A stretch of DNA of 64,000 nucleotides from Escherichia coli. GTDB taxonomy: Bacteria; Pseudomonadota; Gammaproteobacteria; Enterobacterales; Enterobacteriaceae. How positions within the stretch are numbered: the first letter of the stretch is position 1; every line of letters begins with the position of its first letter. The stretch is from assembly GCF_044324785.1 (NCBI RefSeq), contig NZ_CP172127.1; one strand, 5' to 3'. Shown piece by piece: positions 6,022-33,734 of this stretch. The translations under genes were made by a program, and so were the position numbers. The notes beneath the pieces were generated by a model. That model was not told the DNA's origin, ran no database searches, and saw only the letters and a list, made by a program, of their open reading frames with translations.

Positions 6022-6252
6022 AAAACCATAGTGATGTTTTTTGACAATGTGTTAGCTCTTTATCAATAGGCCGCACGGTTGTTTGGTGGCGTCAAAATCG
6101 CCGAGGCGTTCCCTGAAGGCCGGGGCAGCCCACATGGATGTGGGCTGAGGGCGCGTTTTACAGGGATAATGAGATGGACGCTCCAGATTTTACGGTATCA
6201 AAGTACCAGACTGGATCGTTGCAATACGTCCTGAAAAATTAGGAGCGTCCAC

Positions 6253-21117: not shown

Positions 21118-21176
21118 AATGCACTCCTTATGTTAACGAAAGGATTGTACAGTAAAGCGCATTTGTTAACGAATCA

Positions 21177-32290: not shown

Positions 32291-32371
32291 AAAAAAACCT
32301 GCTGGTGAGGCAGGTTCTTTTATTTACTACAGTGACGCTAACTTGCTGATTGTGCAACATTTCGTACCAAC
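32291..32371 (-). ncRNA. orzO: OrzO-like antitoxin sRNA (copy 1), ~81 nt
   Basis: Minus-strand promoter (-10 TATAAT at 32383-32378, -35 TTGCAA at 32406-32401, 17-nt spacer); terminator hairpin AACCTGC-TGGTGAG-GCAGGTT 32296-32316 followed by U-tract on minus strand; 5' 18 nt complementary to toxin 5' UTR 32520-32537. Confidence 0.6.
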
Positions 32372-32377
32372 GAATAA

Positions 32378-32428
32378 ATTATAACCATATCCACACTCCA
32401 TTGCAATTCAGTGAATGAGATTTATAAT
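32378..32428. promoter_or_regulatory. divergent sigma70 promoters of zor copy 1 and its sRNA sharing one palindromic -35 hexamer TTGCAA
   Basis: Plus strand: TTGCAA (32401-32406)-16 nt-TATAAT (32423-32428); minus strand: same TTGCAA-17 nt-TATAAT (32383-32378). Confidence 0.55.
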
Positions 32429-32609
32429 CCTGCCCGTTGGGAGGTTGTGCCGGATCGGACCAATTTTAAGTCCTGGCTACCGGACGGGTGGTGCCGCAGG
32501 CGGTGCCCTGATCCGGAGAGCAACGTTTCGTACCAACATACGTAAACCAGTATCGACAGGCAGTGTAAGGGTAAGGTGCTGGTGTTGCGCTCCTTAATAA
32601 GGAGAGCGG

Positions 32610-32699
32610 ATGGACACGCTGACACAAAAGTTAACCGTGCTCATTGCTATACTGGAGCTATTAGTGGCTCTGTTACGGTTGATTGATTTGTTGAAGTAA
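32610..32699 (+). CDS. zorO: type I toxin, 29-aa hydrophobic peptide ZorO/ZorP family (copy 1)
   Basis: Manual translation: MDTLTQKLTVLIAILELLVALLRLIDLLK; AAGGAG SD 5 nt upstream; ~175-nt 5' UTR from predicted TSS ~32436; O versus P assignment between the two copies is uncertain. Confidence 0.8.
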   Translation: MDTLTQKLTVLIAILELLVALLRLIDLLK

Positions 32700-32720
32700 C
32701 GGGCAAATTGAAACGCATCT

Positions 32721-32745
32721 AAGGGGGAAAACCGCTTCCCCCTTT
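32721..32745 (+). terminator. rho-independent terminator of zor copy 1
   Basis: AAGGGGGAAAACCGCTTCCCCCTTT hairpin 22 nt after stop. Confidence 0.6.
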
Positions 32746-32897
32746 AATAAAATGATTACTGTTTTTATTAATTCATCATATAACTCATTTTTATTTATAA
32801 ATTCATCGATTTTATATTCAACGTACCATTTGACCGGGATGTGAATATTTATGGTGGGCTATTGGCAAAAAATATCTGGAAAGTAGATCGCAGAAAA

Positions 32898-32979
32898 TAA
32901 AAAAACCTGCTGGTGAGGCAGGTTCTTTTATTTACTACTTTGATGTTAAGTTACTGATAGTGCAACATGGCATCTCAAC
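32898..32979 (-). ncRNA. orzP: Orz-like antitoxin sRNA (copy 2), ~82 nt
   Basis: Minus-strand -10 at 32991-32986, -35 TTGCAA 33014-33009; terminator hairpin 32904-32924 with U-tract; 5' region complementary to copy-2 toxin UTR 33126-33146. Confidence 0.6.
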
Positions 32980-32985
32980 GAACGA

Positions 32986-33036
32986 ATTATAACCACCTCT
33001 GGACAGTGTTGCAATTAAGATAATGAGATTTATAAT
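32986..33036. promoter_or_regulatory. divergent promoters of zor copy 2 and its sRNA sharing palindromic TTGCAA
   Basis: TTGCAA 33009-33014; plus-strand TATAAT 33031-33036; minus-strand TATAAT 32991-32986. Confidence 0.55.
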
Positions 33037-33217
33037 CCTGACTGTTGGGAAGTTGCGCCGGATCGAACCCATTTCAAGTCCTGGCTACCGGACGGGTGGT
33101 GCCGCAGGTAGTGCTCTGATCCGGAGTGCAACATGGCGACTCAACAAACGTAAACCAGTGTCGACAGGCAGTGTAAGGGTAAGGTGCTGGTGTTGCGCTC
33201 CTTAATAAGGAGAGCGG

Positions 33218-33307
33218 ATGGACACGCTGACACAAAAGTTAACCGTGCTCATTGCTGTACTGGAGCTATTAGTGGCTCTGTTACGGTTGATTGATTTGTT
33301 GAAGTAA
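33218..33307 (+). CDS. zorP: type I toxin, 29-aa hydrophobic peptide ZorO/ZorP family (copy 2)
   Basis: Manual translation: MDTLTQKLTVLIAVLELLVALLRLIDLLK (one I-to-V difference from copy 1); same SD and UTR architecture. Confidence 0.8.
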   Translation: MDTLTQKLTVLIAVLELLVALLRLIDLLK

Positions 33308-33326
33308 CGGGCAAATTGAAACGCAT

Positions 33327-33734
33327 CTAAGGGGGAATACCGTTTCCCCCTTTAATAAAGCTATACTCGTCATACTTCAAGTTGCATGTGCTGCGACTTG
33401 AATTATCTAGAGTATATAATTCTATTTGTTGGTTGAATATATTCTGTAGTTCACAATTAAAAATTACTATTACAGGTTCAGGTGATTCGCCTCGTAATTT
33501 TTGCTCATCAATAAACTCATCTCTTATATAAATCAACGCATCATTTATTAGCGGGTCGACATCTTCTCGATCACGTTGATGAAATGTTGGACGTAGCCGG
33601 AATCGCTCCAGCCGGTAGACGGAGCCTGTAAATAATTCAGAGCGTTTATGGATCTCAAGCCTGAAGGAAAACGGCTCTTCAGGTACAGGGGCCTCATAGT
33701 CGTAAATAGTGACCAGCTCTTTTTGCACGATCAT
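33327..33734 (-). CDS. yehK: hypothetical protein (YehK-like), 135 aa
   Basis: ORF in the position of yehK downstream of yehI; identity by position only; 3' end overlaps zor copy-2 terminator. Confidence 0.45.
   Translation of the reverse strand: MIVQKELVTIYDYEAPVPEEPFSFRLEIHKRSELFTGSVYRLERFRLRPTFHQRDREDVDPLINDALIYIRDEFIDEQKLRGESPEPVIVIFNCELQNIFNQQIELYTLDNSSRSTCNLKYDEYSFIKGGNGIPP
33329..33353 (+). terminator. rho-independent terminator of zor copy 2
   Basis: AAGGGGGAATACCGTTTCCCCCTTT hairpin. Confidence 0.6.

Follow-up and report, generated by a model that had tools for sequence, protein, structure and literature searches.

How is a toxin mRNA translated when its Shine-Dalgarno (SD) sequence forms one arm of a hairpin? 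This question is raised by a locus in a 64,000-nt stretch of Escherichia coli DNA (contig NZ_CP172127.1), which we refer to as the window. An earlier note, made from the letters of the window, had described a perfect 6-bp inverted repeat, CTCCTT-AAT-AAGGAG, at 32590-32604, with its 3′ arm serving as the SD of a small toxin ORF, and direct reading of the sequence bears this out. The SD stands 5 nt before the start codon (spacer AGCGG between AAGGAG and the ATG at 32610-32612), and the second copy of the arrangement, which the note had placed at 33198-33212, is identical in sequence and is followed by an ATG at 33218. We find that the hairpin is real, that the earlier reading is essentially right, and that the element is already known as the stem in which zor toxin mRNA sequesters its RBS. 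We put the probability that it is a cis-acting lock on translation of a Zor type I toxin mRNA, as already described for zorO, at roughly 0.9.

The window carries a tandem zor-orz locus

[quoted passage not shown] The locus contains two Rfam OrzO-P sRNA genes and two Zor toxin ORFs of 29 aa. Each Orz sRNA gene is divergent from, and upstream of, one small toxin ORF, with −35/−10 elements present on the minus strand. The assignment of the ORF to a toxin in the earlier note was correct, as copy 2 encodes the published ZorO peptide and copy 1 encodes ZorO with a V14I substitution.

Both copies have the small hydrophobic 29-aa ORF of the Zor family. The family's RBS, AAGGAG in a stem at +164 to +169, is found here by sequence, by coordinates and by predicted pairing, and the Orz complementarity to the 5′ UTR takes the family's form, with ~17-19 nt located ~60 nt upstream of the RBS. 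The cognate Orz-zor duplexes end at UTR position +102 and are stronger than the non-cognate pairings. Toxicity on overexpression, repression by Orz and RNase III dependence have been published for zorO of strain EDL933 only (PMC3919570).

The published zorO 5′ UTR is 174 nt long, with the RBS at +164 to +169 (Wen, Harp and Fozo, NAR 2017, PMC5397157). If 174 nt are counted back from the ATG at 32610, +1 falls on 32436 and the published RBS coincides exactly with the AAGGAG of 32599-32604. Upstream of copy 1 we find a −35 element TTGCAA at 32401-32406 and a −10 element TATAAT at 32423-32428, and the same hexamers are tabulated for zor and orz (PMC11264685). The −35 hexamer TTGCAA (32401-32406; 33009-33014) is palindromic and is used by zor and orz on opposite strands, such that the divergent promoters coincide fully at −35.

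Table 1. Coordinates of zor-orz features in the window (positions given from its first letter; UTR positions in parentheses).
Feature	Position	Strand	Basis or remark
Orz antitoxin sRNA gene, partner of copy 1	32291-32370	−	RF02083 at 32291-32364, 88.8 bits (gathering score 60); cognate duplex
5′ UTR, copy 1	32436-32609	+	+1 inferred from the published 174-nt UTR; the published processed end, +29, would be 32464
5′ segment 'sequence 1' (+9 to +22)	32444-32457	+	Predicted partner of the EAP in full-length mRNA; agrees with published EAP protection
EAP region (+73 to +102), copy 1	32508-32537	+	Holds the Orz site (32520-32536); GGAGAGCAACGU (32515-32526) within it is complementary to the anti-SD strand
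'Sequence 3' GUGUUGCGCUCC, copy 1 (+147 to +158)	32582-32593	+	Common to the SD hairpin and the alternative EAP duplex
Anti-SD arm CUCCUU, copy 1 (+155 to +160)	32590-32595	+	Predicted to pair with 32599-32604 at p = 0.97-0.99
Hairpin loop AAT, copy 1	32596-32598	+	Direct reading
Shine-Dalgarno AAGGAG, copy 1	32599-32604	+	Published zorO RBS, +164 to +169
Zor toxin ORF, copy 1	32610-32699	+	29 aa, ZorO with V14I; zorO-type 5′ UTR
Terminator hairpin of zor, copy 1	32721-32747	+	Predicted fold
Orz antitoxin sRNA gene, partner of copy 2	32899-32978	−	RF02083 at 32899-32972, 91.7 bits (gathering score 60); cognate duplex
GGAGUGCAACAU (element 2), copy 2	33123-33134	+	12 pairs possible with 33190-33201; isolated duplex −19.2 kcal/mol (predicted)
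'Sequence 3' GUGUUGCGCUCC, copy 2	33190-33201	+	Complementary to copy 2 element 2
SD hairpin CUCCUU-AAU-AAGGAG, copy 2	33198-33212	+	CTCCTT 33198-33203, AAGGAG 33207-33212; predicted p = 0.72-0.89
Zor toxin ORF, copy 2	33218-33307	+	29 aa, same as the published ZorO peptide MDTLTQKLTVLIAVLELLVALLRLIDLLK

The two copies differ in the region that pairs with Orz. In copy 1, positions +73 to +102 (the EAP) are identical to those of O157:H7 zorO, which makes this copy zorO type by its Orz-pairing region. The corresponding region of copy 2 (GGAGTGCAACATGGCGACTCAAC, 33116-33145) matches neither zorO nor zorP of EDL933 (O157:H7) and represents a third type. Copy 2 may be the zorQ/orzQ type of PMC11264685. 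The copies are ordered yehL, zorO-type, third type, yehK in the window, whereas the order in O157:H7 is yehL, zorP, zorO, yehK. Beyond copy 2 lies a yehK homologue at 33327-33734 (−), with 89% identity to the 105-aa O157 YehK over those 105 aa; it is 30 codons longer than O157 YehK, and its 3′ end overlaps the copy 2 terminator hairpin (33329-33355).

The zor UTR and ORF were found in 3,399 of 5,426 complete E. coli genomes. A wider locus query was matched in 5,424 genomes, where a match stands for some part, whichever it may be, of the query; the surplus would fit the published orz-only loci. Neither zor ORFs nor orz sRNAs carry a RefSeq (PGAP) annotation in the genomes examined, and NCBIfam holds models for DinQ and DqlB and none for ZorO.

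The Shine-Dalgarno is predicted to be paired in every transcript form of copy 1

The upstream arm of the hairpin, CUCCUU, matches the 3′ end of 16S rRNA, i.e., the anti-SD. The stem can be extended by GCG/CGC over one G·A mismatch, and the predicted stability is −4.9 kcal/mol for the core hairpin and −10.3 kcal/mol for the extended form. The hairpin lies in a 33-nt stretch that is repeated identically 608 nt further downstream, in copy 2. The RBS sequence AAGGAG is conserved in 99.8% of 2,439 loci (PMC11264685, Table 3). A second small hairpin is predicted right after the SD hairpin, formed by AGCG (32605-32608) and CGCU (32617-32620), with the start codon in its loop.

The SD hairpin appears in both the MFE and the centroid structures of the full-length and Δ28 RNAs. 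For copy 1, the five outer pairs have predicted probabilities of 0.97-0.99 and the closing pair 0.67 in the full-length, Δ28 and Δ82 forms. For copy 2, the hairpin has p = 0.72-0.89 in the full-length and Δ28 transcripts, and in Δ82 its outermost pair falls to p = 0.19. No alternative partner of the SD exceeds a pair probability of 0.02. Once CUCCUU is replaced in silico, the SD is predicted to be mostly free, as in the published Δ82 RBS mutant. The full-length fold also pairs +1 to +22 with +74 to +102, reproducing the published protection of the EAP.

We estimated the cost of opening the SD at ~6.4 kcal/mol, which places the zor sites third and fourth among the 14 strong-SD sites in the window; this ranking does not single out zor. 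Higher predicted SD opening energies were seen at two AGGAG-ATG sites, at 6241 (+; 12.1 kcal/mol, 341-aa ORF) and at 21128 (−; 9.4 kcal/mol, 35-aa ORF).

Published zorO experiments place the RBS in a stem

The earlier note had proposed structure probing, stem mutations and a search for processed 5′ ends, and for zorO all of these have published counterparts, whose outcome is the one that the note had foreseen, with the refinement on processing given below. According to probing with RNase T1 and lead(II), the zorO RBS lies in a stem whether the mRNA is full-length or processed (Δ28), with no difference at the RBS between the two forms (PMC5397157). Both translation and toxicity of zorO rise strongly when the strand opposite the RBS is mutated, and a natural form lacking 28 nt is reported in the same work. 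Deleting 82 nt (Δ82) abolishes zorO translation and exposing the RBS rescues it, and OrzO pairs inside the EAP and inhibits translation (PMC5397157). The same account of zorO is repeated in reviews (PMC5668327, PMC8309996). The nucleotides opposite the RBS are not specified in PMC5397157 as consulted; from the coordinate match and the folding, we infer that the published stem corresponds to the local CUCCUU-AAU-AAGGAG hairpin.

The note had further suggested that translation may need UTR processing or unfolding. This holds in that the Δ28 mRNA is translated better than the full-length mRNA, but "need" is too strong, as some translation, at a lower level, is also obtained in vitro from full-length zorO mRNA (PMC5397157). 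The role given to UTR processing must likewise be narrowed: processing does raise zorO translation, but in vitro the RBS stem stays closed, and it is the upstream EAP (+73 to +102) that is exposed instead and is proposed as a ribosome standby site (PMC5397157). Binding of the 30S subunit to the zor EAP is stated as yet to be demonstrated (PMC11264685). With these corrections, the case illustrates that a translational lock on a toxin gene, real and confirmed by experiment, can be recognised by reading the sequence alone.

A probable cis-acting lock on zor translation

Published experiments on zorO show that the RBS is held in a stem, that processing enhances translation, that mutation of the stem partner rescues it, and that OrzO inhibits it. 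Based on these results and on the predicted folds, the following sequence of events can be proposed. Because the anti-SD arm sits only 3 nt upstream, the SD AAGGAG would pair at once on transcription, ahead of the start codon. The 5′ end (+9 to +22) of the primary transcript is also predicted to pair with the EAP (+73 to +102). Loss of the first 28 nt frees the EAP and raises translation, and Orz, by pairing with +85 to +101 in the EAP, blocks translation and leads to RNase III cleavage. For copy 1, the zorO-type copy, the published view is that the freed EAP may act as a standby site, from which the 30S subunit would capture the SD when the stem breathes, the stem being otherwise closed.

The mechanism of copy 1 is most likely the published one, with a constitutive SD lock, relief via the processed 5′ UTR, and antagonism by Orz. 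We infer that the hairpin acts co-transcriptionally and that the same lock operates in copy 2. Two facts stand against the lock: the core stem is weak (−4.9 kcal/mol), with an opening cost that ranks only third and fourth in the window, and full-length zorO mRNA is translated in vitro, i.e., the lock leaks. In addition, the EAP is complementary to the anti-SD strand in a conserved manner, which a pure standby model leaves unexplained.

The hairpin does not vary within zor

We searched for zor outside E. coli with a degenerate, CDS-anchored pattern scan of one genome per species, which found it in Escherichia whittamii and two other Escherichia species only. The most divergent E. coli BLAST match (H55, strain HS-02) was left out of the comparison, as its assembly is ridden with homopolymers. 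Across 8-9 zor units from E. coli and the three other Escherichia species, the SD hairpin is invariant; RNAalifold keeps it, and there is no covariation within zor, as none of the 6 pairs ever varies. This invariance is neutral on the structure, neither for nor against it.

The differences among the zor units fall mainly in two places, the 5′ half of the UTR and the Orz-pairing region. The segment 32539-32645 (UTR +104 to codon 12) is near-invariant across paralogous copies and four Escherichia species, and the first 12 zor codons show no synonymous changes, while later codons and the 5′ half of the UTR vary. The invariance from +104 to codon 12 suggests a constraint at the RNA level that extends beyond the 6-bp hairpin. 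A candidate explanation for this constraint is a fold, seen in the predictions, in which codons 4-10 pair with the end of the ORF on its 3′ side.

The zor mRNA resembles the dinQ and dql toxin mRNAs

Because zor alone is invariant, support from covariation has to come from an alignment that includes dinQ and dql. We built a profile HMM from dinQ and 12 plasmid dinQ/dql mRNAs (13 mRNAs in total, with zor excluded), and it matches both zor mRNAs in nhmmer searches (E = 1.7e-19 and 3e-18). The matches span model positions 4-297 and cover 32458-32739 and 33066-33347 of the window. In a pairwise comparison, the K-12 dinQ mRNA aligns with the zor mRNA end to end, and the dinQ hairpin CUCCAU-CGC-AUGGAG aligns with zor CUCCUU-AAU-AAGGAG. 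The peptides behave differently: ZorO matches no NCBIfam model, those for DinQ and DqlB included, and membership at the protein level is unsupported. A 113-nt piece of the zor UTR has been reported to match plasmid sequence upstream of dinQ ORFs, with a relationship of the families stated as not proposed (PMC11264685), and in the literature searched we found no paper proposing one.

The translation of dinQ is set by four elements (Kristiansen 2016, PMC5066626). In its primary transcript, elements 1 and 2 pair, and a 'closed SD hairpin' is made up of elements 3 and 4. Once 43 nt have been lost, element 2 takes element 3 as its partner, which opens the SD, and AgrB, by binding element 2, recloses the hairpin; this switch is backed by SHAPE, mutations and translation assays (PMC5066626). 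The comparisons indicate that the zor mRNA is a relative of the dinQ toxin mRNA in which all parts of the dinQ switch are kept, a relationship that is new relative to the literature searched.

In the family members compared, a local hairpin closely precedes the start codon and carries the SD in its 3′ arm, with loops of 3-6 nt and stems of 4-8 bp. In an alignment of 12 sequences, which was anchored on GGAG and CUCC and whose members are related to one another, 97.2% of the cells of this hairpin (3:4) are paired, compared to 35-64% in slid controls. Its four core pairs are invariant, and the other 2 of the 6 pairs, at positions 5 and 6, change in a compensatory way (U-A to A-U and U-A to G-C). 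Two members with a shifted register (UCCCUU/AAGGGA; L012 and L014) were excluded from the 3:4 count. A Providencia plasmid dql copy (L024, NZ_CP096347.1) was also excluded, as it has neither the SD hairpin nor the upstream elements. Its dinQ-like ORF, at 380-620, without SD hairpin and upstream UTR elements, looks decayed or truncated.

Does zor also contain a dinQ-type switch?

The EAP of zor contains a counterpart of dinQ element 2, GGAG(A/U)GCAAC(G/A)U at +80 to +91, which is complementary to element 3, and the Orz site (+85 to +101) overlaps its GCAAC. This raises the hypothesis that a dinQ-type four-element switch acts besides or instead of a standby site: once freed, the EAP segment GGAG(U/A)GCAAC(A/G)U would take the anti-SD strand and open the hairpin, and Orz would reclose it, as AgrB does for dinQ. 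We regard such a switch as possible, with the odds leaning somewhat against it; it is a rival or complement to standby that deserves to be taken seriously, above all for copy 2.

Several lines of evidence speak for it. The near full-length match of the dinQ/dql-only profile to both zor mRNAs links them to a system in which elements 1-4 are experimentally supported (PMC5066626), and mRNA homology, a closed SD hairpin, 2:3 pairing that is exclusive of 3:4, and predicted 1:2 pairing are all found in zor. The matching zor elements are predicted to form 2:3 duplexes. In isolation, the predicted energy is −19.2 kcal/mol for copy 2 and zorP, −13.9 kcal/mol for copy 1 and −15.4 kcal/mol for dinQ, and on average cognate 2:3 duplexes reach −16.2 kcal/mol and non-cognate ones −8.7 kcal/mol. 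Across the 12 family members, 88.2% of the 2:3 helix is paired, compared to 74.5 ± 2.8% in shuffled sets (0 of 500 reach the observed value) and 42-58% in slid controls, and 7 of its 12 pairs show compensatory changes. These covariation counts come from an alignment that we built ourselves from related members, anchored on the same GGAG and CUCC motifs, which weighs against giving them full credit.

The published genetics fit a switch as well as they fit standby. Δ82 cuts into the GGAG and RBS exposure rescues translation, a GAG-to-CTC change in the conserved GGAGTG/AG lowers toxicity (PMC11264685), and OrzO lies over the GCAAC. The structural data on zorO argue against it, as T1 and lead probing found the RBS to be the same in the full-length and Δ28 mRNAs (PMC5397157).

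We calculated the cost of forcing 2:3 over 3:4 in the whole-transcript ensemble. On processing, this cost changes from +1.7 to +0.5 kcal/mol for copy 2 and from +4.4 to +1.8 kcal/mol for zorP, both at an assumed processing site that is known only for zorO. For copy 1, it changes from +7.0 to +6.3 kcal/mol. With dinQ as the calibrator, the cost falls from +6.7 to +2.1 kcal/mol (dinQ +44), though dinQ switches experimentally. In copy 1, the 2:3 duplex carries an A·G mismatch at A84 (32519), and this mismatch, shared by zorO-type copies, together with the remaining cost of +6.3 kcal/mol counts against a switch there. The calculation, which rates the proven dinQ switch too low, makes copy 2 no less ready to switch than dinQ and copy 1 locked, and the latter prediction agrees with the published zorO probing. 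For copies with U84 (P or third type), the evidence for a switch consists of prediction. The balance of these calculations leans towards a dinQ-like switch in copy 2 and away from one in copy 1.

Tentatively, we propose that zor-orz may be a chromosomal branch of a dinQ/dql superfamily with the full four-element switch, a proposal to which we give somewhat less than even odds. The conserved, 'RBS-like' GGAG(U/A)G of the EAP would then serve as an anti-anti-SD and not (only) as a standby site, and Orz would recapture this segment. Copies with A84, such as copy 1, would be locked and rely on standby, and copies with U84, such as copy 2 and zorP, would open. If this is true, the two tandem copies differ in the tightness of their repression, and a single nucleotide (A84 vs U84) predicts a functional difference between them.

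Chance and a DNA operator are unlikely explanations of the arrangement

The cis-acting lock must also be weighed against the possibility that the inverted repeat arose by chance or hitch-hiking and has no regulatory role, given that any SD may find a nearby complement. The motif itself is ordinary: perfect 6-bp inverted repeats with a 3-nt loop occur 23 times in the window, compared to 17.9 ± 4.5 in dinucleotide shuffles. The weakness of the core stem and the lack of covariation in zor itself point in the same direction. The placement and the conservation of the repeat, however, are beyond chance. Among 14 AGGAG-N4-9-ATG sites in the window, 2 have the SD within the 3′ arm of a perfect 6-bp hairpin, and both are zor. 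The exact 15-mer occurs at the two zor sites only, with 0 expected. As the two copies are a tandem duplication, we count them as one observation rather than two independent ones. Every dinQ/dql/zor member examined (the decayed-looking L024 left out) retains the hairpin, by way of compensatory changes and with loops that vary, and published mutagenesis of the stem partner raises translation (PMC5397157). We consider a chance origin very unlikely.

Less likely still is the reading of the 15-bp DNA palindrome CTCCTTAATAAGGAG as the operator of a dimeric DNA-binding protein rather than an RNA element, which we rejected: it is a near-perfect DNA palindrome present in the window at the two zor sites only, but it lies ~155 nt downstream of the transcription start and adjoins the start codon, SD and anti-SD fully account for its sequence, no regulator is known or encoded nearby, and in homologues its arms covary as RNA pairs around a loop that goes from 3 to 6 nt, which would upset a fixed spacing of DNA half-sites.

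Comparison with known systems

The closest systems are zorO-orzO and zorP-orzP of O157:H7 EDL933 (Fozo 2010; Wen 2014, PMC3919570; Wen 2017, PMC5397157), which represent the same locus and the same element. In common are the 29-aa toxin, the divergent Orz (RF02083), the TTGCAA/TATAAT promoter elements, the 174-nt UTR, and an RBS in a stem at +164 to +169. The locus described here differs from EDL933 in its copy order, in V14I of copy 1, and in the pairing region of copy 2, which is neither O nor P.

As described in PMC5397157 and PMC5066626, a stable stem holds the RBS of tisB-istR1 (Darfeuille 2007) before as well as after the mRNA is processed, and processing exposes a single-stranded region upstream. 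On this description, tisB resembles zorO in that the sRNA competes at an exposed region far upstream of the RBS, and differs in that the two share no sequence homology and that tisB mRNA is inert in its full-length form, a form in which zorO mRNA retains translation. Our predictions for copy 1 agree with the tisB-type pattern published for zorO, i.e., an RBS that is closed in both forms and an upstream region that is exposed by processing.

In the aapA1-IsoA1 system of Helicobacter pylori, local anti-SD hairpins reportedly sequester the SD of the toxin, uncoupling translation from transcription. That family is unrelated to zor; its activation is said to occur by 3′ processing, and its antitoxin is said to overlap the 5′ UTR.

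With dinQ/dql, zor has in common a closed SD hairpin with a CUCC..GGAG core, an upstream GGAG segment complementary to the anti-SD strand, a 5′ end that pairs with this GGAG segment, an sRNA that targets the same segment, and a 5′-processed active form (PMC5066626). The peptides are not detectably related at the profile level. The zor genes have sigma-70 promoters, and the LexA control of dinQ is not reported for zor. When probed, the processed zorO mRNA still had its SD stem closed; that of dinQ +44 opens. The link to dinQ joins two type I toxin families that have been treated as unrelated and offers a testable alternative to the standby model for zor.
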